A DNA stretch of 64,000 nucleotides from a virus (taxonomy: Duplodnaviria > Caudoviricetes), in the IMG/VR virus record IMGVR_UViG_3300020190_000004. The stretch is one strand, 5' to 3'. Made by a program: the position numbers and the translations under genes. This document shows positions 31,576 through 56,702 of the stretch, piece after piece. The notes under the pieces are model-generated. The model was not told where the DNA came from. It did no database searches and saw only the letters and a list, made by a program, of their open reading frames with translations. Position 1 is the stretch's first letter; each line of letters opens with the position of its first letter.

Positions 31576-32175
31576 TTATCTTTTATGAAATAAAACATCA
31601 TAATAAGGACTTCCATGGCGCCAGTTAGTACCTATTGCCTCGTGTTTATATCCTAAATATGTTAACTTTTGTATGCACTCAAATGTTTTAATTCTTAAAG
31701 CAGGATCTAAAAAGTCATGGAATTCTACTGTGTATTGGTCAGGTTTCTTTAGAGTTTCATTGTCGGCTAGTATAAACATATCCCATTCAGCGCCTTCAAT
31801 ATCAACTTTAACTAAGTCTATTTTATCAAACTTATCAAAAATTTGTTTAAGAGTGTAGCCTTTAACTGTATGAGGTACTCCAGAAAAGTAATTTACTGTT
31901 GCTGAACCTCCTTGAGTTGAGTTTACATCTTCATAAAAAGTGACAGTATCAACTTCTTTACCGACAACAGCTCCTAGTACTTTTTCCGAGCGACCTTCAA
32001 TTGGCACAATAACATTAAAGTTTCTGTCAAGCGGTTCTATCATAAAAGAATAACCGTCTGGGTATTCTTTTAAAAAGTGCGCTGTGAATTCTCCCGTACA
32101 AGCACCTAAGTCAACAAGCACAGGTTTTTCTCCTAAGTCAGAATAATATGTATGTTCAAAATATCTTACCTTCAT
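31576..32175 (-). CDS. FkbM-family methyltransferase
   Basis: VDLGACTGEF, IEP, LVKVDIEGAE; likely start 32175. Confidence 0.85.
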   Translation of the reverse strand: MKVRYFEHTYYSDLGEKPVLVDLGACTGEFTAHFLKEYPDGYSFMIEPLDRNFNVIVPIEGRSEKVLGAVVGKEVDTVTFYEDVNSTQGGSATVNYFSGVPHTVKGYTLKQIFDKFDKIDLVKVDIEGAEWDMFILADNETLKKPDQYTVEFHDFLDPALRIKTFECIQKLTYLGYKHEAIGTNWRHGSPYYDVLFHKR

Positions 32176-33830
32176 GACCATAGATTTAGTGCATCTGCCC
32201 AAGTACCTTTGTAAACTTTGCAGATTTCTGGGTTTCTTAAATATGCAACTGTTAAAAATGATTGATCTTGGTCCATTAAATTCTGGCTTAAAGATTCTTC
32301 AATCAGTTCAGTATAAGATTTTTCAAACTGTAAGATAGCATCGCGGTGACCCATCCATGAAGTTCCAATTATTCTAACGTTATGTCCTTTGTAAAAGCTC
32401 TCAAGATTTAAGTCAGATTCTTTAGGTTCTTCAACACATATAAAGTGCATTTTATCGTTTGTAAAGCGATTCTTTTTCTTTGGGAATTTAGTACCTATTA
32501 AATCATATCTCTGATTCATATGATATACTCCAGCATCAAGCCACATATAGTGCTCAGTGTCAAAGTAATTCTTTTCTATTGCACGTTTTACAAACTGAAT
32601 CTTTTCATGCATCAAGATGTTATATTCTGGTACGCATATTTGCGGATGATTCGGAACTGTTTGATCTTTCAAAAATTCTTCTGACTTCATAACTTCTCGG
32701 ATTCTTTTACCGTATGTACGCTCAATGTAAAAGTCCTCAACTTTCATTGGTATAATTTGAGTTAGAGTTTCTTTACCAACTCTCATCATCTCAATAAACT
32801 CAACGTCTTCCGGGTCAACATATATGACCATTGGAGTAGCATAAGACAGTATGTTTTTCATCCATTCTTTGTATTGTTCAAACGGTCTCTCGAACCCTTT
32901 CCAATTGCTTCTCTTTAGATCATACAATGCTGTAACAACTGTTACATCTTTTTCTCGCCCAACAAGCTTTTCTTTCCAGGGTTGGAATCTGTCGTACTGA
33001 TGAACGATTGGATATACTTCTCCGTTAGCTGTACATACAAGATTCGTTGAATCCATGTAAGGAAGATCAACAAGCATGTTTTCTACGTAAGAGCCTTTAC
33101 GGATTCTTTCATATGAGTTGTAAGGAGTTCTAGGTTCTGTGGACCAATCAGGCACATTCATAGGAAGCGCTATCATAGTCCCGCAATTTAACACCCATGG
33201 AGAATCTGCAGGAACGATCTTAGTTACTTTATTGTAAATGAAACGAATAGCAACATTATAAAAGTGTTGGTCAACAAAACCTCCAGGTTCAGCAGAATAC
33301 CAGGATAGCTCAAGAATAGTTTCGAAGAGGGATAGAAGACCTTTCTTTGTTCCAGCAATAATACCCGAACATAAAGTTTCAGTATCAGCAAGTTTATCGT
33401 AAACCTCTTTACCGTATTGTTTTTGCATGCCATCGCCGTTCCAATCTTCGTGTCTGTATGTAACGCCTTCTGCGGTTGCCATGATTTCATAATGTTCTAT
33501 GTTTTCTCTTAACCACTTATCAGGGTTTTCTTGAAAGATAACATCACGTATGTCGGTGTGAATAACAAGATCCACGTCATTGCATAGCTCACTTTTTAGT
33601 ATATGATCGTAGTCTTCAAACCTTTGTGTTGCTACATTATACAAACCTCTAAAATTTGTTTGTAAAACATAGAAATCATTTTCTTTAAAGTATTCCATTA
33701 ATTCTATGTTGTTGTCATATACAACAACAAACACTTTTCCGTTAAAGCCAGATTTCTTTAGACTTTCTACCCAAGGTTTAACGTCTTCAGGGCAATATCC
33801 TCCAGCCGCTGCTAATATAGCTGTCTTCAT
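32172..33830 (-). CDS. Two-domain glycosyltransferase: GT-A-like N-terminus plus HtrL/YibB (WlaTC)-like C-terminus
   Basis: HTDIRDVIFQENP; VTVVTALYDLKR...YMWLDAG...DQDQSFLTVAY. Confidence 0.65.
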   Translation of the reverse strand: MKTAILAAAGGYCPEDVKPWVESLKKSGFNGKVFVVVYDNNIELMEYFKENDFYVLQTNFRGLYNVATQRFEDYDHILKSELCNDVDLVIHTDIRDVIFQENPDKWLRENIEHYEIMATAEGVTYRHEDWNGDGMQKQYGKEVYDKLADTETLCSGIIAGTKKGLLSLFETILELSWYSAEPGGFVDQHFYNVAIRFIYNKVTKIVPADSPWVLNCGTMIALPMNVPDWSTEPRTPYNSYERIRKGSYVENMLVDLPYMDSTNLVCTANGEVYPIVHQYDRFQPWKEKLVGREKDVTVVTALYDLKRSNWKGFERPFEQYKEWMKNILSYATPMVIYVDPEDVEFIEMMRVGKETLTQIIPMKVEDFYIERTYGKRIREVMKSEEFLKDQTVPNHPQICVPEYNILMHEKIQFVKRAIEKNYFDTEHYMWLDAGVYHMNQRYDLIGTKFPKKKNRFTNDKMHFICVEEPKESDLNLESFYKGHNVRIIGTSWMGHRDAILQFEKSYTELIEESLSQNLMDQDQSFLTVAYLRNPEICKVYKGTWADALNLWS

Positions 33831-35014
33831 ATGTTAAGTGATAATTGTTTGTTATGTAATGTTTCTTTTACTTCTGCTTTCTTTTGCTCTATGAACTTAA
33901 AAAGATTTTCAGTTGAGAAGTTTCCCAATTCTTTTTCCGCGAACCAGATGTTCTTTGCAATACGTGTTTTGTGTGCTTTACCGTATTCGCTTTCTAGTAG
34001 TTTTTCATTTGCTTTTATAGATTCTTCAAAGTGTCTAGTCCAAAAACAAGAAACTGCAAATTCATCTATAGAAGCGCCTTCGTACAGGGAAGAAGTAATA
34101 AATAGCAAGTCTTTATAAGGGTAGTCCATAGTTGCGCAAGACTTAAAAATTTGATAAGCTTGTTCCCATTTTTTGGAATCTTTATAGATTACACCTAATT
34201 GGAAAATTGGTTCACATCTCCAAGGACGTAACATCCAAGCTCTTAGTAAAACTTCTTGTATTTCATCAAGTTTATATTTACCAGGAAACCTACACATGCA
34301 CCATCCAACCATGTAAAGAGCAAACCAAGATTCTTCGTCCCAATTACTCTTCTCGTGACACTGCTGATACCAATGAATTGCCTTTTCCCAGTTTTCTGTA
34401 TCTCTATAAGATTGCGCTAAATAGAACATATAGCGAGGATTGTTTGGTTCATCAATCAGCCCTTGCTCAAGGAGACGAATATCTCTCTCGAACTTATCAC
34501 CCTTCGAACCGCCATCACTCACATCGTTAAATAAAATCGAAAGTAGTCTTGCTCGTGTTTTAAGACCGTCAGCAGGTGAATAGTATTCGTGCGTAACACC
34601 AATACATTTCCAATTTCTTTTGGCATTTAAGATTCTAAAGTTATCATAACGAACACCATGATTGTCTTGTATGACATCATATCCGTCTATGTTAATGTCT
34701 AGTTCATCTTTGCTAAAACCATTATCGATTAAGACCATGTCAGCATCAGTTAATAAGATCCAATCTCCCATAGAAGAAGCAAATTCTAATGCTTCATTAC
34801 GGTTGTGACCAAAATTAACCCACGGTCTTTCGATAAGTTTACCGGGTTTATCTTTTAGGAAGTTCTTAATGATTTCCTGCGTGCCATCCGTAGACCCAGT
34901 ATCGACTATGCACCAAGAGTCGATTAAGTGATACACGCTTTTTAAACATCTCTCTATGATCTTGCTTTCATTCTTTACGATCATATTGAGAACGATGGAG
35001 TTCTTTTCTGCCAT
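33827..35014 (-). CDS. GT2 glycosyltransferase with TPR repeats
   Basis: LNMIVKNESKIIERCL, IVDTGSTDGT, WVNFGHNRN, LTDAD; PNNPRYMFYLAQSY. Confidence 0.85.
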   Translation of the reverse strand: MAEKNSIVLNMIVKNESKIIERCLKSVYHLIDSWCIVDTGSTDGTQEIIKNFLKDKPGKLIERPWVNFGHNRNEALEFASSMGDWILLTDADMVLIDNGFSKDELDINIDGYDVIQDNHGVRYDNFRILNAKRNWKCIGVTHEYYSPADGLKTRARLLSILFNDVSDGGSKGDKFERDIRLLEQGLIDEPNNPRYMFYLAQSYRDTENWEKAIHWYQQCHEKSNWDEESWFALYMVGWCMCRFPGKYKLDEIQEVLLRAWMLRPWRCEPIFQLGVIYKDSKKWEQAYQIFKSCATMDYPYKDLLFITSSLYEGASIDEFAVSCFWTRHFEESIKANEKLLESEYGKAHKTRIAKNIWFAEKELGNFSTENLFKFIEQKKAEVKETLHNKQLSLNI

Positions 35015-35624: not shown

Positions 35625-35913
35625 TATTGATTGTGTTATTAGTGTATTCTTTTATCAGGTCGGTTTCATCTGTTTCTACTTTCCAACCTCTAGATATTGC
35701 GTGTCTTACCCACCCTGCGACATCTTTTCTAATCACTATGGAACAGTGGGTAAACTCATTTTTCTTCTTAGCTTTAGTCATTACATAAAAGAACCAGTTG
35801 TCTTCAGGATCTTCATAGTACTCAGTCAAGTGAGGAGACCTATACTTGCTTAAGACTATAACAGGTTTACTGGCCTTTAAGTGACAATACTTTTCATCAA
35901 CCGTAATACTCAT
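35617..35913 (-). CDS. Hypothetical protein
   Basis: 98-aa ORF, operon packing. Confidence 0.5.
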   Translation of the reverse strand: MSITVDEKYCHLKASKPVIVLSKYRSPHLTEYYEDPEDNWFFYVMTKAKKKNEFTHCSIVIRKDVAGWVRHAISRGWKVETDETDLIKEYTNNTINNG

Positions 35914-36268
35914 AGTGAAAGTTTTTTATGTAATTATTCATCTTTTCCCACCCTTTAACATTTTTCCTGTGTATATCAAAATTAGGGAAAGATTGTTTAA
36001 GATCAACGGCGTATGCAACTAACCATACCGCGGCATCATAGCTAGTTTTTTCTTTATCAATTTCATCTAAAAGATCATAACCGAATGACATAAAGTCAAG
36101 AACTCCTCCCTCAACGTGCCTCTTGGTGACTGTGTTAACGAAATCTTTATATGACCTTGCGACTATCCAGTCTTCTTCTTTGTACTTATTTGCGTACTTG
36201 GAATCAGACATTTGTTGAACCACATCTTCAGGGTTCAATACACTATCAAGAAAGATTTTATACTTCAT
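35897..36268 (-). CDS. Cyclic-phosphate-processing receiver-like domain, degenerate
   Basis: IFLDSVLNP, WIVARSYKDFV, SFGYDL, SYDAAVWL pattern. Confidence 0.55.
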   Translation of the reverse strand: MKYKIFLDSVLNPEDVVQQMSDSKYANKYKEEDWIVARSYKDFVNTVTKRHVEGGVLDFMSFGYDLLDEIDKEKTSYDAAVWLVAYAVDLKQSFPNFDIHRKNVKGWEKMNNYIKNFHYEYYG

Positions 36269-36476
36269 GCTGCGAATAGATTATGTAGTGATTAAAGTTA
36301 TCTATGATCTGATAAAAATTATCATGCGCAACAGAAATAGTTACCCAAGTTCCTTGGTGTTGATTTACAACTCTTACTCTATCAACAAGCCACGCTTCGG
36401 GTATTTCATTTGGGTTAGCCAGCCAATCTGACAACTTCTTTAAAGCGTCTGGGTGTACTTGTATAAAGTATTTCAT
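36258..36476 (-). CDS. Hypothetical protein
   Basis: 72-aa ORF. Confidence 0.5.
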   Translation of the reverse strand: MKYFIQVHPDALKKLSDWLANPNEIPEAWLVDRVRVVNQHQGTWVTISVAHDNFYQIIDNFNHYIIYSQHEV

Positions 36477-36904
36477 ATCACGATTTCTTTTTCCTTTATA
36501 TAAGATACTACACCAATCTCACCATGAAGTTTTTGCAGTGTAGTCATTACCAGTGTATTATATTCACTCGGGTAATTTAGTTCTTTGCTTTGTGAAGACT
36601 TACGATAAACCGGGGTAACCTCTGCTTCGTTTTTCATAGAACTAATAGCAACTATTTTAAAGATTGAAATAGCAACGCCATGCTGATCTTCAAATGACTT
36701 ACAGATAAAGTCACCTTCACTGATTGGAACAAGTGCTTGCTTTTCACGTGTTTCGTTTAAGAATACAGCAGGTTTAGGTTTTCCTTTAGCGTCAAGTATG
36801 ACGGTAGATCTGCTAAGTTCAGAGAAATTCATTAAGCTTTCCCACAGGCAAGGTATTCCAGTTCGGGTTCTTGCGATTTTAATTGTCTTGTTTGTAATTT
36901 CCAT
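36473..36904 (-). CDS. Hypothetical protein
   Basis: 143-aa ORF. Confidence 0.5.
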   Translation of the reverse strand: MEITNKTIKIARTRTGIPCLWESLMNFSELSRSTVILDAKGKPKPAVFLNETREKQALVPISEGDFICKSFEDQHGVAISIFKIVAISSMKNEAEVTPVYRKSSQSKELNYPSEYNTLVMTTLQKLHGEIGVVSYIKEKEIVI

Positions 36905-36905
36905 T

Positions 36906-37802
36906 TTATTGTATGTAAAAATACTGTGATAGTAATTCTCGTGATTCTTCTTGTGTTATGGTTTCTTGTTTGGTTAATTCAGTAAGGCTTTCCATGAATC
37001 TGATGCCTTCAACGGTAGGTAACATATTACCGTTTTTAAGGAAGAACAAAGGTGATCTAAGGTGAAACCAGAGCGGCGATTTTTCATCTTCTTGAACTAT
37101 TTTATCAGCAAGTTCAAAATGTCTTTCATAATAATGAATGTTATCTGCACAATGATAATAAGTACCTAGTTCCAAATCTTTGTATGTATCTTTTAACCAG
37201 TACCACATACTTTGCTGCACGAATGAAAAGAACGGAGCATCATAGGTAAGGCCAAAGAATATATCGTTACTGCGCATTTGAACTTTCATGTTAAGTTTGT
37301 TGTCGCGGATCCAAAAGTTTAAGTACATAGTGCAAACAAAATCTTTGTTGCCCTCATACTGAAATTTAGGTTGATTTAAGAAGCATACAGCTTGACGGGT
37401 ATTCTTGTCTTTTTTCAAAGAGTCAAGCGCCCACTGTAACTGATCACCAAACAAGAGGTTTCCGTAGTTGGAATTTATATGACCACCTTCATCAGCGATG
37501 TTTTTCCAAAAGGAGGAAAAGTTATTGATAAAATCAATGTTGCGATCCTTTAGAAGATACCAGCCAAGTTCACCCATAAAATACTTGTAGTTAAAAGGGC
37601 GATCCTCAAAGTCCATGAGGGAAAAATGAGGGTCTAATCTTAGCATTTCAAGTTCAAGCTCACGAACTTTTTGTCCGCGAGGCGCTGATTCTGTACCAAA
37701 AGAATTTATTCGGCAAATAAGTTCTTTTACAACGTTAGAGATTGATAGTTCTGTTGACGAGGTTAAAGATGCTTTCCGCATCAATGTAGTTGTCTCCTTC
37801 AT
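36906..37802 (-). CDS. Thymidylate-synthase-superfamily enzyme with dCMP-type specificity (dCMP hydroxymethylase/hydroxylase-like)
   Basis: MRSNDIFFGLTYDAPFF (Asp at the ThyA Asn177 position, as in T4 gp42), FVCTMY, NIHYYERHF. Confidence 0.75.
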   Translation of the reverse strand: MKETTTLMRKASLTSSTELSISNVVKELICRINSFGTESAPRGQKVRELELEMLRLDPHFSLMDFEDRPFNYKYFMGELGWYLLKDRNIDFINNFSSFWKNIADEGGHINSNYGNLLFGDQLQWALDSLKKDKNTRQAVCFLNQPKFQYEGNKDFVCTMYLNFWIRDNKLNMKVQMRSNDIFFGLTYDAPFFSFVQQSMWYWLKDTYKDLELGTYYHCADNIHYYERHFELADKIVQEDEKSPLWFHLRSPLFFLKNGNMLPTVEGIRFMESLTELTKQETITQEESRELLSQYFYIQ

Positions 37803-38289
37803 TAATTTTGATTTTGATTTTGTTAATTATGTTTGAGTTGTTAAATGCTTCCTGAAACTTAAAAATTTCTTTTTTCTTATCTTCTAAACGATTAGAGTAA
37901 GATTCTCCATCATCATTTTTGACAATAAATTCTGGGTCACCTTCAAGAAGAACTAGTGTGATGTTATCATCATCAGATAAAAATTTGTTTTCTAATTCTG
38001 GAATCCACCCGTCTGGATGAGAATCCCGATAAATTGTACCGTATACATATTCACCGATGTGTGAACGATTCCAAATAAGTAATTCTAAATCTTTGAGACT
38101 CTGTTTGAATTTGTAATCTTTCATGTAAAAGCCAAACGAAATTTTCTGATACTCAGTTTTTTCTTCGTTGGTATCACCATAAGGATAGCCCCAATGAACT
38201 TTTTGAGAGTTAGGGTATTTTTCTTGTAAGGCTTTAACAAGGGTGTCTTTACCAGTTCTGTCAGTACCTTCTATAATAACTAATTTCAT
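37735..38289 (-). CDS. dNMP/thymidylate kinase-like P-loop kinase
   Basis: LVIIEGTDRTGKDT; WNRSHIGEYVYG. Confidence 0.8.
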   Translation of the reverse strand: MKLVIIEGTDRTGKDTLVKALQEKYPNSQKVHWGYPYGDTNEEKTEYQKISFGFYMKDYKFKQSLKDLELLIWNRSHIGEYVYGTIYRDSHPDGWIPELENKFLSDDDNITLVLLEGDPEFIVKNDDGESYSNRLEDKKKEIFKFQEAFNNSNIINKIKIKINEGDNYIDAESIFNLVNRTINL

Positions 38290-38294
38290 ATAAG

Positions 38295-38324
38295 TTTATA
38301 TTCAGAATAAGTGAATAAGTTTTT
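38295..38324 (-). promoter_or_regulatory. Class-II promoter AAAAACT-N13-TGAATATAAA
   Basis: Recurrent bipartite motif. Confidence 0.55.
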
Positions 38325-38976
38325 ACCAAAGGTCAAGTGTTGTTATCAAGATGTTATGATCTGAATAGCTTGATGGTTCTACAGTTTGACTTAAAATCTT
38401 TAAGGATTTCTTGGGAATAAATGTATAATCTAACACCTCTCCTGCATCCCACGTATCTTCTTCGTTTATGTACGTATACTTCTCTTTAAGATTTAGCAAT
38501 ATCTCGTCGTTTGCGTTAAGATTAAAGTCACCACACAATATACAGTCAGAAAAATCGTAGTTTTTGTGAAAGTTTTTCCAGTAAGTAACTTTATGAACTC
38601 TTGGTGCATGTAAGTTTACAAAATCAAACACCGAGTTTTTTACCCGAAATCTTATCATTTGCGCTGAGTTGTTTTCTTTAACGTTAGCTATTTTTAAGTG
38701 AGTTACTCCTTCAGTTTTTAGTCTGGAAAAAGTTGCTAAACCAAATAGTCCTCCGTCGGTTTCACAAAGTTGGGTAAATGTACTCGGCGTGCCTAAAACT
38801 TTTTCCAATGCCTTTACCTGGTTTACTTCACCTGATCTTTCTGTAAATATGTCAATTTCCTGGACTGCATATATGTCAGCGTTTAAAGATTTTAGTTTCT
38901 TGCCTATTCTATCTATATCCACAAGGCCATCATTCCCTAATGCATGTCTTATATTCCAAGTAACAATTTTTATCAT
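38323..38976 (-). CDS. Endonuclease/exonuclease/phosphatase (EEP) family protein
   Basis: VTWNI, AVQE, ILCGDFN, LDY, SDH. Confidence 0.9.
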   Translation of the reverse strand: MIKIVTWNIRHALGNDGLVDIDRIGKKLKSLNADIYAVQEIDIFTERSGEVNQVKALEKVLGTPSTFTQLCETDGGLFGLATFSRLKTEGVTHLKIANVKENNSAQMIRFRVKNSVFDFVNLHAPRVHKVTYWKNFHKNYDFSDCILCGDFNLNANDEILLNLKEKYTYINEEDTWDAGEVLDYTFIPKKSLKILSQTVEPSSYSDHNILITTLDLW

Positions 38977-40208
38977 TAAAACAACACTTTTGATTTTTCT
39001 AATTTCTCTGCGAAGTCTATTCGCTTAGATATGTTATTTTGCTTTAAGAACTTACCACCAAATTCTGTCTTTTCACCTTTCACAAAACTTACAACTTCTC
39101 GAGTCCAATCACAAGCAGTTGTAACCGGTACGTTCTGGCATATATGATTCCAGTGTCCGCCTTCAACAAGTTGAAAATCATGTGGAAGACCCATTAGCCA
39201 CATTGCTTCACGAAGTGTAATTCCTCTTTCTCCGTTTGGATGAACAATTCCAGAGTTTTTGGCAATGATTGCGTTTGTAGCATCTTTAAAGACTAGCGGA
39301 GTTCCGTCCCACCAGCCTTTGTTTAAGCTGATTTTGTACTTGACGTGATTTAAGAATTTAGCAACATCTGGTGCTTCATTTTCTTCTGCCCATGCAATAC
39401 CGTCATCTAACCAGCCTTTAGATAAAATGATTTGTAAAAGGGAGTGATGGTCTTCAGATGCCATAGCTTCTTTCATTGTCATACCCTTAGACTTAACAAA
39501 ACGAACCCAAGCATTACTGGTTAAATCACCAAGGCCAAACCCGCGGTCCATTAAAGAAGTTCCTTTAGGAATGGCAGAAAGATAGTTTTCTAAGGACGGT
39601 GCTTCTTTTAATTTGTAATCAAATAGCGGAGCATCGCTGTCTTTCCAAAAGAAGTAAAAAGAACGAATACGATTTTGTGGAATACCATGTAAGAAGGTGT
39701 TTGTCTTAATTAGCGAAAAGGAATAACCAAAAGTTTCTCCAATCTCACGTAATTTGTCTACAACACCAGCGCCCATAGCAGTGTATAAACCTGGCGCATT
39801 TTCGCCCCAGAATACTTTAGGTTGAATATGTTCCAAAACAAAGCCGGCTGTTTTGTACATCCAATCATTTTGAACCGCGTCGGATCCGCGTGCTTTACCG
39901 CTTGTTCCGTTGTTTGCATTTAGCATTGAGAGGCCAGCGCATGGGCAAACCGTTGAAACAAAGTCAACGTTGCTGAACATATCACCCGGATCAACATCTT
40001 CAGGAAGCCGGTTGGTTTCAGCATCAATTATCATATACGGCGTATCTTTAAAGTAGTTTACGCAGTGAGAATCGTTTCCGCGAAATGCTTCATACGAAAT
40101 AAGGAATGCAGGTTCTTCACCGGTAGCCTCGCGATTTGCGATTGTCATTCCGCCAATAAGAGGGACTATTGAACCGTATTTAATTTTGTCTTGTTTTTTC
40201 TTTGTCAT
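38976..40208 (-). CDS. DNA cytosine-5 methyltransferase-like protein
   Basis: Motif IV CPCAGLS, VI GENAPGL, VIII PQNRIR, IX TLREAMWLMGLP, X QNVPV; divergent motif I (PLIGG). Confidence 0.8.
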   Translation of the reverse strand: MTKKKQDKIKYGSIVPLIGGMTIANREATGEEPAFLISYEAFRGNDSHCVNYFKDTPYMIIDAETNRLPEDVDPGDMFSNVDFVSTVCPCAGLSMLNANNGTSGKARGSDAVQNDWMYKTAGFVLEHIQPKVFWGENAPGLYTAMGAGVVDKLREIGETFGYSFSLIKTNTFLHGIPQNRIRSFYFFWKDSDAPLFDYKLKEAPSLENYLSAIPKGTSLMDRGFGLGDLTSNAWVRFVKSKGMTMKEAMASEDHHSLLQIILSKGWLDDGIAWAEENEAPDVAKFLNHVKYKISLNKGWWDGTPLVFKDATNAIIAKNSGIVHPNGERGITLREAMWLMGLPHDFQLVEGGHWNHICQNVPVTTACDWTREVVSFVKGEKTEFGGKFLKQNNISKRIDFAEKLEKSKVLF

Positions 40209-41596
40209 TAGAATAATGATTTAGCTTGTATGTTTTCTTTTTTAACTTTGTTATCATCGTTGAGTTCAGGAACTCTTAACACTTCTTCACTGAATCCTTT
40301 AACCATCTTTACATTAACACCGGCTCTCTCTAAGAACGGGTTAATGACATCACATAAGAATTCACCTTTACGAACACCAATTAAGAATTGCATTTGTAAT
40401 TGTTTAACTATCTGGATGCGAAGTTCAGGATCATTTTCCATTTGTTCTATTTTCTCAAACATTTCTTTTGCATCTTTAACGCGCAAGTAATGATCTTTTG
40501 GTATAAGTGAGTATTGCGTATCGTAATCTGGGTGAAAGAATGGTACTACGCCAACTCTTAACATTTCAGCATATTTACTTGTAACCCAATCAGGGCGAAT
40601 AGGAATGATTAAAGTATAGCGTGTATCTTTAAAGATAGCGTCGATTTCTTCGGGTGTTTTGTAACCCTGAAACTGTGTATAGTTCTTTGTGAAGCGCTCA
40701 TCCCATTTACCGTAAATCTTAAAGTCTTCGCTGTTTGGCTGATTAAGAATCCATTTCTTAAGAGCTTCAAGTCGGTAATCAACTTCTGCTTTGCCATAAG
40801 AAGATTGCATTGCTACAATAGCAAACTTGGTATTTCTTTCAGTACCAGGGTGTATTACTTCTTCACCAATCAGATTAAGTTTTTCAATTCCTGAGTAAGT
40901 TAATGTAAGAGGCTCAGTAATTTCAGTTCCTGTTGAAGGATTTGGGTAAGTATCAAAGTGAGTAAAGTTAATGAAACTGTTGTATTGAGCAATACACTCA
41001 CGTGGGCCGTTTATCATGTCACGCCATTTTTGGTTCTTCTTGATGTAACGAGGATCAGTCATAACCATGAACCATGGAATCTTTGACATATTTAAGTAGT
41101 GTACAAGCGGTGCACCGTAGATAAGAGTCATATCAAGAGCACCCGTCATTTTGCTTGGATCTTTAATACTTGGAATTATTCCTGGTATGTTTACCATTGT
41201 TAAACCTTGGGAAGCAAAACCAATCCCAAAGTCAGGTTGTTCTATTTCTTTAATTTTGCTCCACAGATCTTTGTAACTTTCTTGCTCTTCTTTTGTATGT
41301 GGAATAAGAACTCCGTCTGCTCCCTGTCGACGCCCAGGAGATACCTTTACATTGTATTCCATGTAAATGTCTCTAAGTACTCCACGCGGATCGAATGCAA
41401 TTTTTTCTTCACTAGATAGTTTCTTCCAGTCACTGCGTTGCAGAATCCACACTTCGGAAACATTAGGGTTTCTAACCAGCCCGTAAAACAATTTGTAGTA
41501 CTCCGAGGTACCGTCCGCTCTTTTAATGTTTTCTTTGCGGAATTTCATTGCTGAACCTATCGGAAAAACAGCGATCTTGAGATTATCAGTCTTCAT
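40208..41596 (-). CDS. GT-B glycosyltransferase, T4 DNA beta-glucosyltransferase-like
   Basis: C-terminal YTLIIPIRPDWVTSKYAEMLRVGVVPFFHPDYD...VKDAKEMFEKIEQMENDPELR parallels the T4 BGT C-terminal pattern (recalled, unverified). Confidence 0.55.
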   Translation of the reverse strand: MKTDNLKIAVFPIGSAMKFRKENIKRADGTSEYYKLFYGLVRNPNVSEVWILQRSDWKKLSSEEKIAFDPRGVLRDIYMEYNVKVSPGRRQGADGVLIPHTKEEQESYKDLWSKIKEIEQPDFGIGFASQGLTMVNIPGIIPSIKDPSKMTGALDMTLIYGAPLVHYLNMSKIPWFMVMTDPRYIKKNQKWRDMINGPRECIAQYNSFINFTHFDTYPNPSTGTEITEPLTLTYSGIEKLNLIGEEVIHPGTERNTKFAIVAMQSSYGKAEVDYRLEALKKWILNQPNSEDFKIYGKWDERFTKNYTQFQGYKTPEEIDAIFKDTRYTLIIPIRPDWVTSKYAEMLRVGVVPFFHPDYDTQYSLIPKDHYLRVKDAKEMFEKIEQMENDPELRIQIVKQLQMQFLIGVRKGEFLCDVINPFLERAGVNVKMVKGFSEEVLRVPELNDDNKVKKENIQAKSLF

Positions 41597-41620
41597 GTTA
41601 ATTGATTTCTATATTATTTA

Positions 41621-41650
41621 TTTCTATACATTTCAAGGAAAAAAATTCTT
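41621..41650 (-). promoter_or_regulatory. Class-II promoter variant AAGAATT-N13-TGTATAGAAA
   Basis: Imperfect match. Confidence 0.4.
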
Positions 41651-42317
41651 AACGGACCACGTGATTAATATCAGAATAACTTTTACGTTGTAAAACTTGG
41701 TACGGCCACATAACTAAGTAACGATGTGCATTGTGTTTATCATCTCGAGCAACTTTTCTAAGAGCGCGGTCTGCGTAATAACCTCTTTTCTCAACTTCTT
41801 TCATTGCAGCAAACCAATCAGGGGCATTCTTAATTATGTATGCATGCGAGTTCCAAACGCTAATTGCTTTCTCAAAACCTGGTAAAAATGCTTCTCTCTT
41901 GTCACCTTTAGTATTCTTAAGACCGCCCAGGTAAATGATATTCCAATCATTAGTGATTGTTAAAGATTCATTTACACAGTTCCAAAATTCATTGGGGTTC
42001 TCAATTTGAAAATCATCCTCTAACACGATAAATGCTTTATCACCGGACTTTCCGTAATTCTTAACGATGTGTTCGTAAACCTTTAAGTGTGATAAACCAC
42101 AAGCAACGTTTCCGTATTGAGCGCGTTTGTCTTTAGTTCTGTACTTATACTCACGATTAACCATATCATCAAGAAGATCCGTTGAAAAGAGCTTCCAATT
42201 GACTGCTTCTATAAACTCATAGTCATTAAAGCCTATTTTTTCAAATTCACGAATGCACTCTTGTCTGCGATCTTGCCGGTGAGGCAGATTGATCACGTAC
42301 ACTTTTTCTATTTTCAT
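41649..42317 (-). CDS. GT25-family glycosyltransferase
   Basis: VYVINLPHRQDRR, FIEAVN, ACGLSHLKVY, IVLEDD. Confidence 0.85.
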   Translation of the reverse strand: MKIEKVYVINLPHRQDRRQECIREFEKIGFNDYEFIEAVNWKLFSTDLLDDMVNREYKYRTKDKRAQYGNVACGLSHLKVYEHIVKNYGKSGDKAFIVLEDDFQIENPNEFWNCVNESLTITNDWNIIYLGGLKNTKGDKREAFLPGFEKAISVWNSHAYIIKNAPDWFAAMKEVEKRGYYADRALRKVARDDKHNAHRYLVMWPYQVLQRKSYSDINHVVR

Positions 42318-43710
42318 AAAGAAGTTCTTTAATTAAATTTGTTCCTTTTGCTTTCTTTTTCCAATCGCTTAACCAGCCGTCAATATCGTAATGTTTTTTC
42401 ATTGCGTCAAGTATCTTTTTTCTTTCACTTTCGTTCTTGTCATAATACTCAACTACTTGGCGTAATTCTTCTGCATTCTTAACAGTCAGTTTATCTTGGA
42501 ATTCCTTAGGAATCCACAAGTAATCCTGGTCATACAAGTAGTCAAAGATAGGAAGTACATCAAAGTATAAGTATTGAATATGTCGGTAGGTTAAACCTCC
42601 GTTAGCTGATACGTTTCTTGCAATAAAAGCTGTTTTACATTTCTTAAGAACGTTCATATACTCAGAGTTTGGCATAAAGTCACCGCAGAAGTTAGGGTGC
42701 GCAGAAACCTCAGCGCCCATTTTTTCAAATGAATCTTTATCCATTCCGTAAATAAGACTAACCTTAAAGTAGAGCTGAGAACCAGCATAATCATAGTCTT
42801 TAAAGAAATCTTGCCAGATGTATTTTCTTAATCCTTTATCGTTAAGAAGCGAACCTGCGAAGAAAAAGGGAATCTTCTTGTCACTGCTAAAGAAATCATC
42901 AAGTAAGTTCTTTTTCTCCGGTTTAATGCCTTTCCAAACAGGTTCATAAACCAAATGCTGCAGTTCAGTAAACGGAGAAGCAAAGAAATCACGAGTATGT
43001 CGATGATCATCAGAGTAATACCAAAACTTGTGGTCAAGACCTTTGTGTTTAAAGAATGGAATAGCAGCAGAAGGATCAATCAACATGATATGAACTTTTG
43101 CTTCGTTCATCTTAGAGACTTGCTCAACCACTGAAAGCATTACGTTTTTGTACATATAACGAAAAGCAAGCGGTGAAAAAGATTTAGCGGTTACATCAAA
43201 GAGCTTGTGATTAAGTTTTTCAATCTCAGACAGTACTTCCGGATCATCATCTTCAAAGGTGTCAAAGTAATCATTAAACAGATCACGCAGTTTAGGATGG
43301 TTTGACAGTGGGTTGAAAGGCAACATCAAGTTGTGATTGTCAATAATCATGATGTTATCAAACTCCGGTTCGTTGACAAAAAACTCACGTATAGATGAAT
43401 CAATCTTGTCTTGATTGTAAACATCAGAAGTTTCTAATTCTTTTTTTCTCTTTAGGTTATCTTCCTTAAACTTGTGATAAACCGCTTTATTCATGCGATA
43501 AACATTAGTCATGCCTAAATTCTCAATAGCCTTAAGGCCACCTTCATAAAAGAAGTATACATTATACTCTTCTTTAAGAAGTTCAACAAGTGGAAAAACA
43601 TAACCGTAAGTATATTCACGAGTCTCTAATTGTGAAACTGTAATTAGGATGTTCTTTTTCTTTGGGTCGTTTTCAACAAACTTGTTCTTTTCAAATGTTA
43701 ATTTACTCAT
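42247..43710 (-). CDS. Second GT-B glycosyltransferase, BGT-like
   Basis: FFFAGS; GLTYRHIQYLYFDVLPIFDYLYD...TVKNAEELRQVV; likely start MSKLTF at 43710. Confidence 0.5.
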   Translation of the reverse strand: MSKLTFEKNKFVENDPKKKNILITVSQLETREYTYGYVFPLVELLKEEYNVYFFYEGGLKAIENLGMTNVYRMNKAVYHKFKEDNLKRKKELETSDVYNQDKIDSSIREFFVNEPEFDNIMIIDNHNLMLPFNPLSNHPKLRDLFNDYFDTFEDDDPEVLSEIEKLNHKLFDVTAKSFSPLAFRYMYKNVMLSVVEQVSKMNEAKVHIMLIDPSAAIPFFKHKGLDHKFWYYSDDHRHTRDFFASPFTELQHLVYEPVWKGIKPEKKNLLDDFFSSDKKIPFFFAGSLLNDKGLRKYIWQDFFKDYDYAGSQLYFKVSLIYGMDKDSFEKMGAEVSAHPNFCGDFMPNSEYMNVLKKCKTAFIARNVSANGGLTYRHIQYLYFDVLPIFDYLYDQDYLWIPKEFQDKLTVKNAEELRQVVEYYDKNESERKKILDAMKKHYDIDGWLSDWKKKAKGTNLIKELLYENRKSVRDQSASPARSQTRVHS

Positions 43711-43711
43711 G

Positions 43712-44491
43712 TTAGAATAGTTTACGTGCTTGGTACTTAAGTGTTGATATCTCAACGCTCTTGGGTTGCTTAAATGAATTTATGAAAGATTGCATTGAAG
43801 AGTATCCTATCTTCTTAACAACCGCATCATATTTATTTCTTATCTGCTTACGAATTTCTTCATATTCTTTTTCACGATCACGCTCTTCATAAATCACGCT
43901 ATCAGCATAGCTGTGGTCAAAGAGGCAATACTTTTCAATTTCATAGTAGGAATACCCACTTGTCATTGCTTGCATAGCAAAATCTACATCTTCAAGACTT
44001 TGTAGGTTTTCATCAAAGTACAAATCTTTTATGCCTTGTATAAAAAAAGCACCAGTAGCAAAAAGGGTCTTTCTTTTAAAGTTAAGCGTATCAGGAAGTG
44101 ACTTATCACGAGCATGCCCATGAGGTATAAAACCAACAAGATTCCATGTTGTATGATTACTTAATTCATTTGCTATATTTATGAAAAGGTCAACAGCATA
44201 TAATTTGCTGGTTATGTCATTATCCATAAACATGCACATGCTATCACCAGATTGGTAAAAGTGCTTTAATAAGACGTTTCTTGCTGCAGAAGGCCCTTTA
44301 GCGGGTGCGTCTATGTAATGCACTTTATCGTGCAACATTTTTAAGTCAGATGGGTATTCTTGAGAACACAGTATGATTTGTGTAATCTTATCAGATGCTA
44401 ACAACCACTCAAGTTGAGCATTTTGCTTAGCAACTCTTTTTGCTATGAGTTTAGGTTCTCTACCCAAATAAGAAGGAATGTAAACTTTCAT
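43712..44491 (-). CDS. GT-A glycosyltransferase resembling T-even glucosyl-hmC glucosyltransferase / TET-associated GT
   Basis: MKVYIPSYLGR, GPSAARN, MFMDND, LEDVDF. Confidence 0.6.
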   Translation of the reverse strand: MKVYIPSYLGREPKLIAKRVAKQNAQLEWLLASDKITQIILCSQEYPSDLKMLHDKVHYIDAPAKGPSAARNVLLKHFYQSGDSMCMFMDNDITSKLYAVDLFINIANELSNHTTWNLVGFIPHGHARDKSLPDTLNFKRKTLFATGAFFIQGIKDLYFDENLQSLEDVDFAMQAMTSGYSYYEIEKYCLFDHSYADSVIYEERDREKEYEEIRKQIRNKYDAVVKKIGYSSMQSFINSFKQPKSVEISTLKYQARKLF

Positions 44492-44519
44492 AGATAAGTT
44501 ATTTGGGTATATATATGTT

Positions 44520-46088
44520 CTACATTTGTGCGATTAAATTCTTTGCCCTGACATAGAATGCTGTTTGTCTTTTGCGATCATCAGGATGAAAAGGAATGGC
44601 TGTAACAAGAAGAAGAATAGCAAGTTTCTTTAATAGAGTTACATCATATCCTAAATTATGTAATTCAGTTTCCAAGAACTTAGACAAGTCTTGGGTTCCA
44701 GGAACCCAATCAATTTCAAGAGTTGTATCTTCAATTTTGTAACGATTTGCCATAATCATTGCGTACCCACAGTAAAAATCTTGTAAGAGTTTTGCCATGT
44801 CATAGCGCATATCACCTTCGTTCCAATAGAAACCACCAAACTCACCACGAGGATCAACAAACTTAATGTTACCACTGTGTGGGTCATATATAATGTTGCC
44901 CAAATGAGAATCTCCATGCATGCAAGAAGACCAAGCAGGGTCTTTAACTAATTCTAGCGAAGTATCAAGAAGAAAAGATTCAAGTTCGGTATCACGATGA
45001 CCAAGTACTTCCCAAATATCTTCTAACCTGTTAGAAGTTTTTATGTAATATGCTTCAAGACATAATTGTGCTTCTTCACCTTTTGGCTTAAATGAAAGAT
45101 TAGTATAAAACACACTGTGATGAACCTTTAAGATCTTGCGAATAATATCATGCCAAATATCGGTTCTTAAGTTGTCATAAACAAGAACCTCATTAAGAGC
45201 AGTACCAGGCTCAAGTGTCATTCTTAAAGAACCAGCTTCGCTCTTCAAAATCCTTGGACAAAAGAGAGATTGCTTTTCATCGAGATTTTCAAACCAGTTC
45301 TTTTCCGCTTGTATCTTTTGTTGTTTTTCAGGATCCTGAGATGTTTTAGTTACTGTGCCAAAAAATGTATCAACTTCAATCTTGTTAAAAGAACGAGCAG
45401 TTCTCTTAAGCAATCTTGCTTTAGACTCATAGTAAGTATTAAGTTCACCGCAATCATACCATTCTTCAGCAAAGGCAAGTTCCATGGGTCCGTCCTTTTT
45501 CATGTAAGATTCCAAGAGTGCCGCGATTTGGTATTCACCTTTATGAGTAGGTTTTGACATGCCCTTTTCCATCCCATGATTAAAAGCTTTACGGTCAGTA
45601 AAGTTATACACACCAATAATAGCAGAATCTGTAGGCACTTGTCCGTCAGGCTTATCATACAGTTTTCCGTCTGCATCAACCAAACACCAGCGATGTGGGT
45701 CAGAAACTCTATGGACGGCCAGAAAAGACCTGTTGTAATTAAAATCGTCCAGGCAAATGGTATCACCTAACCAAATAGTTACGTTGCTTGAGAAGTCTTT
45801 TAATTGCTTATACCCGATGTCTATTGCGTGAAGCGGCCCAAGTTTTTCTTCTTGCACATAGCAACGAATGTTTTTGTCAGGATAAACCCGACTTACAAAT
45901 TCTCTGATGTCACCCAATTCATTTTCAACAATGACAACTTCAGATACATCTTGCTTTTCATATATCTTTTCTATGATATAAGATATTAGAGGACGACCGT
46001 TTACGGGTATCATTGCTTTACTTACACCTCGGGACAGAGGTTTCATGCGAGTAGCAAGGCCAGCGGCCGGAATAATTACGCTTCTCAT
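44520..46088 (-). CDS. Sugar nucleotidyltransferase fused to an APH/choline-kinase-like domain
   Basis: IIPAAGLATRMKPLS...KAMIPVNGRP; HGDSHLGNI, KFVDPRG, YDMAKL. Confidence 0.85.
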   Translation of the reverse strand: MRSVIIPAAGLATRMKPLSRGVSKAMIPVNGRPLISYIIEKIYEKQDVSEVVIVENELGDIREFVSRVYPDKNIRCYVQEEKLGPLHAIDIGYKQLKDFSSNVTIWLGDTICLDDFNYNRSFLAVHRVSDPHRWCLVDADGKLYDKPDGQVPTDSAIIGVYNFTDRKAFNHGMEKGMSKPTHKGEYQIAALLESYMKKDGPMELAFAEEWYDCGELNTYYESKARLLKRTARSFNKIEVDTFFGTVTKTSQDPEKQQKIQAEKNWFENLDEKQSLFCPRILKSEAGSLRMTLEPGTALNEVLVYDNLRTDIWHDIIRKILKVHHSVFYTNLSFKPKGEEAQLCLEAYYIKTSNRLEDIWEVLGHRDTELESFLLDTSLELVKDPAWSSCMHGDSHLGNIIYDPHSGNIKFVDPRGEFGGFYWNEGDMRYDMAKLLQDFYCGYAMIMANRYKIEDTTLEIDWVPGTQDLSKFLETELHNLGYDVTLLKKLAILLLVTAIPFHPDDRKRQTAFYVRAKNLIAQM

Positions 46089-46477
46089 ATTTTATTTTCA
46101 GCTTTTATGATATTCTCAAAAAATTCAGGGTTATCAAGTACAAAAGACTTGAGCGATAGGTTGCGGTTATCAACATAAATAGGGTTTTCTCCCCAAGGTT
46201 TTCCCATGATGAGGCGGTCAAATCTCACACCGTGCTTTAATAGCCATTCATCGAGAACGGGAGCTGTATTTTTATAGATAGCCTTAATGTTGCCTTTATG
46301 CGTTCGCATTCCTCGGGCAGAAAAAAGAATGATTGTATTTCCCGCTTCGTGTAATTCATTAATTCGTTCAATAACACGAGGAAAGGGGGTTGCGTTAGGG
46401 TAATCGTAGGTTCCGTCTTCTTGCTTTTCTGCGTGACAGATGGTTCCGTCGACATCAAGTATGTATGTGTTTGGCAT
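46085..46477 (-). CDS. HAD-family phosphatase (capsule-biosynthesis type)
   Basis: ILDVDGTIC, FSARG, MGKP, YVDN; likely start MPNTY at 46477. Confidence 0.85.
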   Translation of the reverse strand: MPNTYILDVDGTICHAEKQEDGTYDYPNATPFPRVIERINELHEAGNTIILFSARGMRTHKGNIKAIYKNTAPVLDEWLLKHGVRFDRLIMGKPWGENPIYVDNRNLSLKSFVLDNPEFFENIIKAENKI

Positions 46478-46496
46478 AGTATTAAGTTTTCTATAA

Positions 46497-46525
46497 TTTA
46501 TATACAAATTTTGTAAATAGTTCCT
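46497..46525 (-). promoter_or_regulatory. Class-II promoter AGGAACT-N12-TGTATATAAA heading the sugar/GT operon
   Basis: Recurrent bipartite motif. Confidence 0.6.
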
Positions 46526-46592
46526 AAATAGTACAAAAAGAGGACATCTAGTGTCCTCCATTGAATGTTATCTATTTTGTATGGGTATTCCA

Positions 46593-55799: not shown

Positions 55800-56702
55800 T
55801 TATTGTTTTATTTTGTTTATCGTTTTTTGTACCGGGGAAGTCTCCATAGAAATATCACGAGACTTCCAGTAAGATTTTCCATAAGAGATAAAAATCTCTT
55901 CGCCTGGTTCAATATCCCGCAGAGCATAAAAACTGATTGTCTTTTTCTCTGTATTTATTTTCCAGTCAGCCATAGGTTGATTTCTATGATTATACAAAGA
56001 AGCATTCCCAAACGCAATAGCGTATAGAGAGTCGTCAAGTTTAAACACATAGTCCATAACAACAGTACCCGTTATCTGATCTTTTGGAATTACAAGAAGA
56101 GGAGCAACTTCAAAGCACTCACCATTCTTGATGTAATCTACACAGAAAACTCCAGCAGCATCTACACTAGATTTTCCAACGCCTATCTTGTCCCAGACTT
56201 TTACCGAAGCCGATCTTCGAAGTTTGCCTTGCGGTTCACTGATGTAAACTACTGAATTAACAGGTTCTTTCTTAGTATCACCGCCAAGGGATTCAAACGT
56301 CTTTTGAATCCTTCGAGTAATGTTATTCTTTTTTAATACTTCTTTAACTTGTTCGTCAAATTGACTGAATATCTGTAGCAGATCAGCGTTAAGAGTGTCT
56401 TGTCTATCTTCTATGATTTTTTCAATGTTTTTCATAGCAGATTGCTTAGATTCTTCAGTAGAATCCGCAAGATCATTTATGATGCTCATCTGCGTTACCA
56501 ACTCTTCATCAGCGGTAAACTTGTATGTAGTACCGCCTTTCGAGTAGAGTTCCATTACAACAGAACCTGTTGAGTCAGGGTTTCTTAAGGCATCAAAACT
56601 GATTGTTGGCGGCTTAAGACCTCCTCCGGTGAAGTCGAATTTAATCTCGCCTTCACGCTCAATCAGAGCTTCTGTAAGATATTCATAATAAGTCTTAATC
56701 AT
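55800..56702 (-). CDS. SET-domain protein-lysine methyltransferase with CTS-like tag
   Basis: MIKTYYEYLTE; SSVDAAGVFC, GNASLYNHRNQPM, ALRDIEPGEEIFISYG. Confidence 0.85.
   Translation of the reverse strand: MIKTYYEYLTEALIEREGEIKFDFTGGGLKPPTISFDALRNPDSTGSVVMELYSKGGTTYKFTADEELVTQMSIINDLADSTEESKQSAMKNIEKIIEDRQDTLNADLLQIFSQFDEQVKEVLKKNNITRRIQKTFESLGGDTKKEPVNSVVYISEPQGKLRRSASVKVWDKIGVGKSSVDAAGVFCVDYIKNGECFEVAPLLVIPKDQITGTVVMDYVFKLDDSLYAIAFGNASLYNHRNQPMADWKINTEKKTISFYALRDIEPGEEIFISYGKSYWKSRDISMETSPVQKTINKIKQ

Follow-up and report, generated by a model that had tools for sequence, protein, structure and literature searches.

What base does a phage carry when its genome encodes, side by side, enzymes that modify cytosine, activate sugars, and transfer them? 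The question is raised by a gene cluster in a 64,000-nucleotide stretch of the IMG/VR virus record IMGVR_UViG_3300020190_000004 (Duplodnaviria; Caudoviricetes), which we call the window, and which shows 64 kb of a genome of about 238 kb. An earlier note, made from the sequence alone, had read the cluster as a pathway for a glycosylated, modified cytosine. The cluster consists of ten co-directional genes on the minus strand at 36906-46561, which are separated by gaps of at most 52 nt and in several cases share overlapping start and stop codons. Searches with Pfam, PHROG, and NCBIfam profiles confirmed the domain content of all ten contiguous genes as the note had listed it (Table 1). When the entire cluster was compared by megablast to 50,697 phage records, no match was obtained, and the phage therefore has no close cultured relative.

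We consider it probable, if by no means certain, that this operon encodes a cytosine hypermodification pathway that acts partly before and partly after replication, in which 5-hydroxymethylcytosine (5hmC) is made by an enzyme of the phage T4 gp42 type, a nucleoside diphosphate (NDP)-sugar is made by the phage itself, and sugars are added to the DNA. The phage is thus predicted to pair a T4-type base, 5hmC, with a sugar-activation module of the type found in phage RB69.

The predicted base

The last gene of the operon encodes a homolog of thymidylate synthase (TS), which had been described in the earlier note as being of the dCMP type. We aligned this protein with Escherichia coli ThyA, T4 gp42, and RB69 gp48, and scored the 12 positions listed in PMC13326640 as lying within 6 Å of C5 (E. 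coli ThyA numbering). The protein from the window was identical to T4 gp42 at all 12 (W80, Y94, D143, C146, T147, M165, R166, S167, N168, D169, G173, and D177), while RB69 gp48 departs from both at positions 80, 143, 168, 169 (Asn), and 173. Among PDB sequences, it matched T4 dCMP hydroxymethylase best (E=5.7e-19), with MilA and true thymidylate synthases ranking lower, and it is 31% identical to T4 gp42 (E=3e-20), compared to 25% for RB69 gp48 (E=4e-7).

Arabinosylation of the RB69/DLP3 type takes place on 5-hydroxycytosine (5hoC), which is made by TS homologs carrying a D169N substitution (Lee et al. 2026, PMC13326640). According to the same study, D177 confers specificity for dCMP, an acidic residue at position 143 accompanies non-methyl products (by hydration of the methylene), and N169 is present in every validated 5-hydroxy-dCMP (5hodCMP) synthase. 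As the TS homolog in the window agrees with gp42 at all 12 positions and does not have D169N, its predicted product is 5-hydroxymethyl-dCMP (5hm-dCMP), and the predicted base 5hmC rather than 5hoC. The parallel with RB69 arabinosylation that had been drawn for this cluster consequently extends to the sugar-activation module described below, but not to the base.

Adjoining the TS gene, here and in every close relative, is a gene for a nucleotide kinase that is TMK-like rather than similar to T4 gp1. It is the positional analog of RB69 gp45, DLP3 gp78, and phage G gp315, and is predicted to act as a 5hm-dCMP kinase.

A phage-encoded sugar-activation module

The first two genes of the operon encode a HAD phosphatase and a nucleotidyltransferase-kinase fusion (NTPK), and this dedicated module supports the earlier proposal that the phage brings its own enzymes for an NDP-sugar. 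The HAD protein, which carries a DVDGT motif, is 33% identical to RB69 gp51 (E=1e-10) and has the same PHROG annotation; its match to the EcbF/BcbF capsule phosphatase model TIGR01689 (E=1.6e-23) falls below the cut-off. It is predicted to be a sugar-1,omega-bisphosphate phosphatase that yields a sugar-1-phosphate. The fusion protein of 522 amino acids (aa) combines an N-terminal sugar-1-phosphate nucleotidyltransferase (RmlA_long, E=6e-23) with a carboxyl-terminal APH-type kinase, and has both GxxTR and HGDSHLGN motifs. This is the architecture of AfhE, of RB69 gp52:53, and of DLP3 gp82. Together with the HAD phosphatase, it forms the type of module with which RB69-type phages produce UDP-arabinose. 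Direct matches to RB69 gp52 and gp53 are weak, and identity to the Straboviridae enzymes is about 23%.

In HY126, AfhE and AfhF act on arabinose-5-phosphate, which is phosphorylated at C1, stripped of its 5-phosphate, and uridylylated (PMC13326640). By analogy, we infer the same logic here, leading from a sugar-omega-phosphate over the 1,omega-bisphosphate and the sugar-1-phosphate to an NDP-sugar, while leaving the sugar unspecified. A tblastn search of the window with RB69 gp55, an arabinose-5-phosphate isomerase, gave nothing, and the SIS domain (PF01380) was not found in 3 related contigs, with the positive control found in 14 of 14 genomes. A host arabinose-5-phosphate isomerase could stand in for a phage enzyme. 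Because no such isomerase was found, and because identity to the Straboviridae enzymes is low, we did not assign the sugar to arabinose.

Four glycosyltransferases

Four genes in the middle of the operon encode glycosyltransferases (GTs): 2 with a GT-B fold, one with a GT-A fold, and one GT25. Profiles of both GT-B families found nothing significant among PDB sequences, and the fold was therefore used instead. For GT-B 2, an AF2 model (pLDDT 76) was searched against the PDB with Foldseek, where T4 beta-glucosyltransferase (BGT) took ranks 1-5 and 7 (1qkj, E=6.6e-8, TM by target 0.59), before all cellular GT-Bs. GT-B 2 is also the sole GT of the operon that is kept in distant relatives: its homologs in Pseudoalteromonas phage vB_Psh_XG4 (XG4) and in marine loci lie beside the HAD and NTPK genes and a gene for a C5-methyltransferase (C5-MTase)-like protein, and in Enterococcus phage 9183 the homolog adjoins the NTPK gene, with no C5-MTase-like gene in the stretch read. 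This makes GT-B 2, on the strength of its modeled fold, a candidate for the “core” DNA glycosyltransferase.

GT-B 1 had no homolog among cultured phages. Its carboxyl-terminal, donor-binding domain is homologous to the one in GT-B 2, as hhalign aligned it with the family of the latter at a probability of 96.9% (E=1.4e-10). Protein-language features (Atlas) placed both GT-Bs near T4-Gluco-transf clusters (0.95 for GT-B 1), which we treat as a lead only. Of the 2 proteins described as BGT-like in the earlier note, GT-B 2 thus resembles T4 BGT in its fold; a glucosyltransferase activity is putative for both.

The GT-A protein begins with MKVYIPSY, has a DND motif, and matches phrog_842, annotated as “beta-glucosyl-HMC-alpha-glucosyltransferase”; a match to the TAGT family (PF20691, E=9e-4) was below the cut-off. 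One of the freshwater relatives (L002) encodes a homolog. The beta-glucosyl-HMC-alpha-glucosyltransferase of phages T2 and T6 adds a second sugar on DNA, and the GT-A protein is a candidate for a chain-extending DNA glycosyltransferase. The GT25 protein is of the lipopolysaccharide (LPS) beta-1,4-galactosyltransferase type. In related contigs, GT25 genes adjoin the C5-MTase-like gene (L005 and L069) or lie within the island (L004), and we regard this enzyme, too, as a candidate chain-extending enzyme.

Pathways with 3 GTs have been characterized for DLP3 (tri-arabinosyl) and RL38J1 (tri-hexosyl) (PMC13326640), and trisaccharides are among the glycans described by Pyle et al. 2023 (bioRxiv 10.1101/2023.12.21.572611). 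With 4 GTs, the operon has one more than these pathways, in agreement with the earlier statement that their number exceeds what has been characterized. The undescribed base suggested in the same place is a prediction. The multi-sugar chain proposed alongside it is supported by GT-A, which falls in the same PHROG as the T2/T6 enzyme that extends the chain, but the 2 GT-Bs might also act in parallel, like the alpha- and beta-GT of T4, instead of in series.

Related phages exchange the middle of the island

Relatives in IMG/VR and in metagenomes retain the flanks of the cluster, with a small open reading frame (ORF), the HAD gene, and the NTPK gene on one side and the C5-MTase-like gene, the kinase gene, the TS gene, and an ORF of 143 aa on the other, while the middle is exchanged. 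The genes found there encode AGT-like GT-Bs, GT32 proteins, a hexapeptide acyltransferase, S-adenosylmethionine (SAM) methyltransferases, a DegT aminotransferase, and an epimerase, or a further set consisting of a separate transaldolase, kinase, nucleotidyltransferase, and HAD protein. Conserved flanks around an exchangeable set of sugar and GT genes argue for the island being a hotspot of glycan diversification.

The further set is seen in contig L007 (2469-5734), where the fused AfhE-like gene is replaced by genes for a transaldolase/fructose-6-phosphate aldolase, a separate kinase, a separate nucleotidyltransferase, and a HAD_2 phosphatase. Its gene content suggests that a different sugar donor is made at the same locus.

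More distant T4-like contigs share a gene order that runs from DNA polymerase to DUF1599, a gp42-type TS, dCMP deaminase, a variable block, a C5-MTase-like gene, uvsX, and gp41. Genes in the variable block encode strong homologs of T4 AGT (PF11440, E=3e-32), epimerases, UDP-galactopyranose mutase, a cytidylyltransferase, acetyltransferases, or aminotransferases. The position of this island is that of the gene 42 / beta-gt / uvsX locus of T4. Similar sets of genes are found in cultured phages, in the order TS-HAD-NTPK-BGT-like GT-x-C5-MTase in XG4 and TMK-TS-dUTPase-HAD-NTPK-BGT-like GT in Enterococcus phage 9183 (Denvervirus). In Bacillus phage G, a looser set spread over 15 kb (gp301-gp319) comprises a C5-MTase-like protein, 2 AGT-like GTs, a glucose-1-phosphate nucleotidyltransferase, a HAD protein, a TMK, a dCMP deaminase, and a TS. 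The TS homologs of these 3 phages carry the 5hmC-type signature D143/D169/D177, and their clusters encode one or 2 GTs, compared to 4 in the phage studied here. The papers we searched reported no modification chemistry for XG4, 9183, phage G, or S-TIM5. Taken as a whole, the comparative context argues strongly that the GTs act on DNA.

A conserved C5-methyltransferase-like enzyme

As with the GT-Bs, a search of PDB sequences with the C5-MTase-like protein gave no significant match, and we therefore relied on its fold. An AF2 model (pLDDT 88.7) showed a full C5-DNA-methyltransferase fold, and Foldseek matched it to M.HhaI, M.HaeIII, DNMT1, and CmoX with E-values of about 1e-12 at 12-15% identity. 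An hhalign comparison of the family with E. coli Dcm aligned only motifs IV-VIII, with low probability. Across 46 homologs, motifs I, IV, VI, VIII, IX, and X are invariant (PLIGG, CPCAGLS, GENxP, QxRxR-SFYFFWK, RE..M..P.DF, and QNVP), while the acidic position of motif II varies (E15, D12, S8, K7). The family is large, with 2175 homologs at E<=1e-5.

A gp42-type TS gene was found 1.1-4.8 kb upstream of the C5-MTase-like gene in 19/19 testable T4-like metagenomic loci, that is, distant loci that extend at least 5 kb upstream of the gene, which are mutually related and thus not independent. Outside the T4-like lineage, the gene occurs in the GT/NDP-sugar clusters of XG4 and phage G, and in cyanophage S-TIM54 it lies beside a gene for a dCMP-type ThyA. 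Judged by this recurring context, the gene is not incidental, but a conserved member of such islands. In addition, 3 freshwater contigs contain 2 tandem paralogs (L001:6843-9250, L002:14270-16703, and L003:14477-16922), each about 41-48% identical to the single copy in the window.

The target-recognition region is the least conserved part of the family (38%, compared to 55-58%), which suggests that these enzymes recognize DNA sequence-specifically and that their motifs differ. The likeliest role for the enzyme, as far as these comparisons go, is to methylate cytosines that escape replacement, after which every cytosine would carry either a methyl or a glycosyl-hydroxymethyl group. Since Enterococcus phage 9183 does not have the gene in the stretch read, it would be inessential to the core pathway. 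In the literature searched, no paper gives a function to a C5-MTase inside gp42-type GT clusters.

A 2OG-Fe(II) oxygenase encoded at 52037-52795 was considered as a TET partner for this enzyme and rejected, as it matches PF13640/PF13661, shows no Tet_JBP signal, and lies 12 kb away. A search for Tet_JBP (PF12851) in the relatives gave no match, but the control genomes gave none either, so that its absence is not shown.

Comparison with known systems

The operon resembles the T-even pathway in its gp42-type active site, the kinase gene beside the TS gene, the BGT-like GT-B fold, and a GT-A protein that falls in the PHROG of the T2/T6 enzyme. T4 differs in that it draws on host UDP-glucose, makes no sugar donor, adds at most 2 sugars, does not have the C5-MTase-like gene, and uses gp1 in place of a TMK-like kinase. 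The visible sequence of the phage studied here yielded no dCTPase of the gp56 type.

With the Afh clusters of RB69, DLP3, and HY126, the operon shares the gp51-like HAD protein, the nucleotidyltransferase-kinase fusion, a TMK-like kinase by the TS gene, and the presence of several GT-Bs. It differs from them in that its TS homolog does not have D169N and no arabinose-5-phosphate isomerase was found, and it adds genes for GT-A, GT25, the C5-MTase-like protein, and an EEP-fold enzyme. A third group of clusters combines C5-MTases, TET (5mYOX) dioxygenases, and GTs, and has been documented to decorate 5hmC with glycans of one to three sugars (Burke et al. 2021, PMC8256090; Pyle et al. 2023, bioRxiv 10.1101/2023.12.21.572611). 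These likewise have a C5-MTase-fold enzyme beside DNA GTs, and the GT-A protein has weak TAGT similarity. In contrast to these clusters, the operon contains no TET/JBP dioxygenase, and its 5hmC is expected to come from the nucleotide pool via the gp42-type enzyme. Lastly, CmoX (PDB 8yf3), a DNA cytosine C5-carboxymethyltransferase that exemplifies natural cofactor switching (PMC12783734), is another C5-MTase fold in a phage hypermodification context, and ranked ninth in our Foldseek search (E=2.9e-12). Its motif IV is SPPC, compared to VCPCAGLS in the window, and the Pfam calls of the cluster included no CmoA or CmoY neighbor.

Proposed pathway and alternative explanations

In the pathway that we propose, the TS homolog would convert dCMP to 5-hydroxymethyl-dCMP as T4 gp42 does, judged by its active-site residues; the TMK-like kinase would phosphorylate the product, and 5hm-dCTP would be incorporated at replication. 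In parallel, if the sugar-activation enzymes work like their homologs AfhE/AfhF and RB69 gp51-53, a host sugar-omega-phosphate would be phosphorylated at C1 by the kinase domain of the fusion, the HAD phosphatase would strip the distal phosphate, and the nucleotidyltransferase domain would make an NDP-sugar that the host does not supply. Fold and context suggest that GT-B 2 then attaches a first sugar to the 5-hydroxymethyl group of the DNA, and that GT-B 1, GT-A, and GT25 may lengthen or branch this glycan or act at alternative sites; the outcome would be a glycan of 2 to 4 sugars, or a mixture. The C5-MTase-fold enzyme would act on DNA in a sequence-dependent manner, with the EEP protein as an accessory. 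The shuffled sugar and GT content between conserved flanks fits diversifying selection by host nucleases.

Several observations weigh against this pathway. At the sequence level, neither GT-B matches T4 AGT or BGT significantly, the link to BGT comes from a pLDDT-76 model with TM values of about 0.5-0.6, and the GT25 and GT-A families usually act on LPS. The rule that separates D169 from N169 has a single paper as its basis (PMC13326640), and the D143/D177 signature is also present in MilA, which acts on CMP for an antibiotic. A query with the T4 gp56 dCTPase gave no match in 3 related contigs (partial genomes), nor did a query with a MazG-like ORF of XG4 find a homolog in the 64-kb window; because no dCTPase was found, with only part of the genome visible, full replacement of cytosine is unproven. 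If all cytosines are replaced, a C5-methyltransferase is left without an obvious substrate. Sub-threshold PRA-PH/MazG-like matches were found in XG4 (L063:7001-7549) and in S-TIM54 (OP053362.1:140204-140419), near or directly downstream of the C5-MTase-like gene, and it is possible that these ORFs encode the dCTPases of those systems. A search of the related contigs for DUF1599 also found nothing; their records are 49-66% complete, and these searches do not establish that gp56, the SIS domain, or DUF1599 is absent.

The presence of the hallmark genes of the RB69/DLP3 pathway (the HAD protein with the nucleotidyltransferase-kinase fusion, and the TMK-like kinase by the TS gene) could mean that 5-hydroxy-dCMP is made by the TS homolog in a flavin-dependent reaction, and that the GTs build an oligo-arabinose directly on 5-hydroxycytosine. 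The TS homolog has W80, N168, D169, and G173 in common with T4 gp42, however, to which it is also nearer than to RB69 gp48, while the validated 5hodCMP synthases all have N169. Since 3 related, incomplete contigs also yielded no SIS-domain isomerase and the window no match to RB69 gp55, we regard this explanation as highly improbable. It is also quite unlikely that the GTs and the NDP-sugar module work off DNA, on a host surface polysaccharide or on virion proteins, with the nucleotide genes adjacent by chance. The GT genes sit in the same operon as the gp42-type, kinase, and C5-MTase-like genes; the same slot holds bona fide T4 AGT homologs in related T4-like phages and matches the beta-gt/gene 42 locus of T4; and the fold of GT-B 2 is nearest to T4 BGT, ahead of cellular GT-Bs, while GT-A falls in a DNA-GT PHROG. 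These points stand against the facts that GT25, GT-A, and Glyco_trans_1_2 are typical LPS/capsule families, that the best NCBIfam match of the HAD protein is a capsule-biosynthesis phosphatase, and that a GT2+TPR protein encoded downstream resembles the peptide glycosyltransferase family of SPbeta YolJ.

A further explanation makes the C5-MTase-fold enzyme the key tailoring enzyme, which would attack C6 of 5hmC or glycosyl-5hmC and exchange or add a C5 substituent, or would use a SAM analog as CmoX does, and thereby form a base that no known pathway makes. Liutkeviciute et al. reportedly found that C5-MTases derivatize 5hmC in vitro. The nucleophile and base-flipping motifs are invariant in the 46 homologs, and the family shares 12-15% identity with known MTases and matches no PDB sequence; the gene borders the GT island in all 19 testable T4-like loci, has comparable clusters in XG4 and phage G as well as its dCMP-type ThyA neighbor in S-TIM54, and is duplicated in tandem in L001-L003. 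CmoX provides a precedent for natural cofactor switching (PMC12783734). On the other hand, a target-recognition region that is the least conserved is expected of ordinary sequence-specific methylases, neither CmoA nor any other cofactor gene was found, the motif is CPC and not the SPPC of CmoX, Enterococcus phage 9183 has the same core without the gene, and the co-location could be inherited synteny of one broad T4-like lineage. We therefore consider a tailoring role unlikely. We are equally doubtful that the family, with its more than 2000 metagenomic members, is a dedicated partner of gp42-type/DNA-GT islands with a chemistry beyond plain cytosine methylation, which, together with a self-made NDP-sugar and 4 GTs, would lead to a cytosine derivative of an undescribed kind.

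Operon boundaries and neighboring genes

The coordinates of the operon and of its surroundings are given in Table 1. The hairpin upstream of the HAD gene likely separates the operon, which would begin here, from the transcription unit that ends before it. For the HAD gene, the probable start is the Met codon at 46477 and not 46561, because the HAD proteins of relatives are about 130-135 aa long and because the hairpin would lie inside the supposed N-terminal extension. The end of the cluster had previously been placed at 46525, between these 2 possible starts. Two overlaps within the operon are unusually long, namely those of the GT25 and GT-B 1 genes (71 nt) and of the TS and kinase genes (68 nt), and relatives have similar ones. 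A scan for sigma-70 promoters gave fewer matches than in shuffled sequence; the host probably belongs to the Bacteroidota, which have other promoters.

Table 1. Features of the operon and its surroundings (positions in the window).
Feature	Position	Strand	Evidence and remarks
Terminator-like hairpin, followed by T-run	46539-46559	-	Just upstream of probable HAD start; within N-terminal extension of 158-aa ORF
HAD-IIIA phosphatase, AfhF / RB69 gp51-like	46085-46477 (listed ORF to 46561)	-	PF25109; phrog_1238 E=1e-18
Nucleotidyltransferase + APH-type kinase fusion, AfhE-like	44520-46088	-	PF00483 E=8e-16; APH E=2e-3; phrog_24015 E=7e-43
GT-A glycosyltransferase	43712-44491	-	phrog_842 E=3.5e-8; IPSY, DND motifs
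GT-B 1, divergent	42247-43710	-	PF13524 E=3e-5
GT25 glycosyltransferase	41649-42317	-	PF01755 E=1.3e-18; phrog_2835 E=7e-18
GT-B 2	40208-41596	-	Fold closest to T4 BGT
C5-MTase-like protein	38976-40208	-	PF00145 E=1.4e-14
EEP-fold enzyme	38323-38976	-	PF03372 E=1.1e-10
TMK-like nucleotide kinase	37735-38289	-	phrog_761 E=1e-12; PF02223 P-loop E=7e-5, below cut-off
TS-fold dCMP C5 enzyme	36906-37802	-	TS family E=6.7e-18; T4 gp42 active-site signature
Conserved 143-aa protein	36473-36904	-	Directly downstream of TS gene
Second glycosylation set	31576-35014	-	GT2+TPR 33827-35014; GT-like/HtrL_YibB 32172-33830; FkbM methyltransferase 31576-32202
FKBP-type prolyl isomerase	51561-51995	-	
2OG-Fe(II) oxygenase, PF13640/PF13661 type	52037-52795	-	
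Cytidylyltransferase-like protein	52836-53282	-	
Calcineurin-like phosphoesterase	53279-54073	-	
SET-domain protein	55800-56702	-	

The EEP protein retains the catalytic motifs QE, GDFN, and SDH. Its homologs were found in L001-L003 only, and its structure matches in Atlas are generic bacterial EEPs, which does not narrow its function beyond the generic family; from its sequence, we propose an accessory nuclease or phosphatase. The 143-aa protein downstream of the TS gene has no Pfam or PHROG match, and in L001-L007 and L069 a homolog with 47-67% identity is found at the corresponding place.

Another set of glycosylation genes is located 2-5 kb downstream of the cluster. It encodes a protein of 552 aa with a GT-like N-terminus and an HtrL_YibB carboxyl terminus, and a GT2+TPR protein whose homologs include SPbeta YolJ and jumbo-phage GTs. 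In L004-L007 and L069, both GT genes of this set lie as far from the TS gene as they do here, while the FkbM homolog is found in L007 only. The set was considered as part of the DNA pathway and left out, since its relatives point to peptide or protein glycosylation; it is probably separate and most likely serves protein glycosylation.

Between the 2 glycosylation sets, a gene at 35897-36268 on the minus strand encodes a 123-aa protein with a cREC_REC “cyclic-phosphate processing receiver” domain (E=6e-11), which is weakly conserved in L004-L006. Genes for a T4-type major head protein, a prohead protease, a Ro60-like protein, and a sigma factor are also found nearby in the window. Upstream of the Ro60 locus lies an unusual run of minus-strand genes (51561-56702).

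Implications

DNA hypermodifications determine which restriction, CRISPR, and type IV systems can act on a phage, and the operon described here would represent a richer version of the DNA camouflage of T4. If the predicted base is correct, the AfhE/AfhF-type NDP-sugar module is not tied to 5-hydroxycytosine, but occurs together with T4-type 5hmC chemistry in unrelated lineages, as in this phage, XG4, and 9183. The presence of a conserved, motif-intact C5-methyltransferase-fold enzyme in a phage predicted to replace its cytosine raises the question of its role, which can be addressed in the cultured phages XG4, S-TIM5, and G. Enzymes of DNA hypermodification have repeatedly become tools, as T4 BGT and the TET/GT enzymes have, and an island whose glycan genes are swapped in and out between conserved flanks would provide a natural collection of DNA glycosyltransferases and sugar donors.

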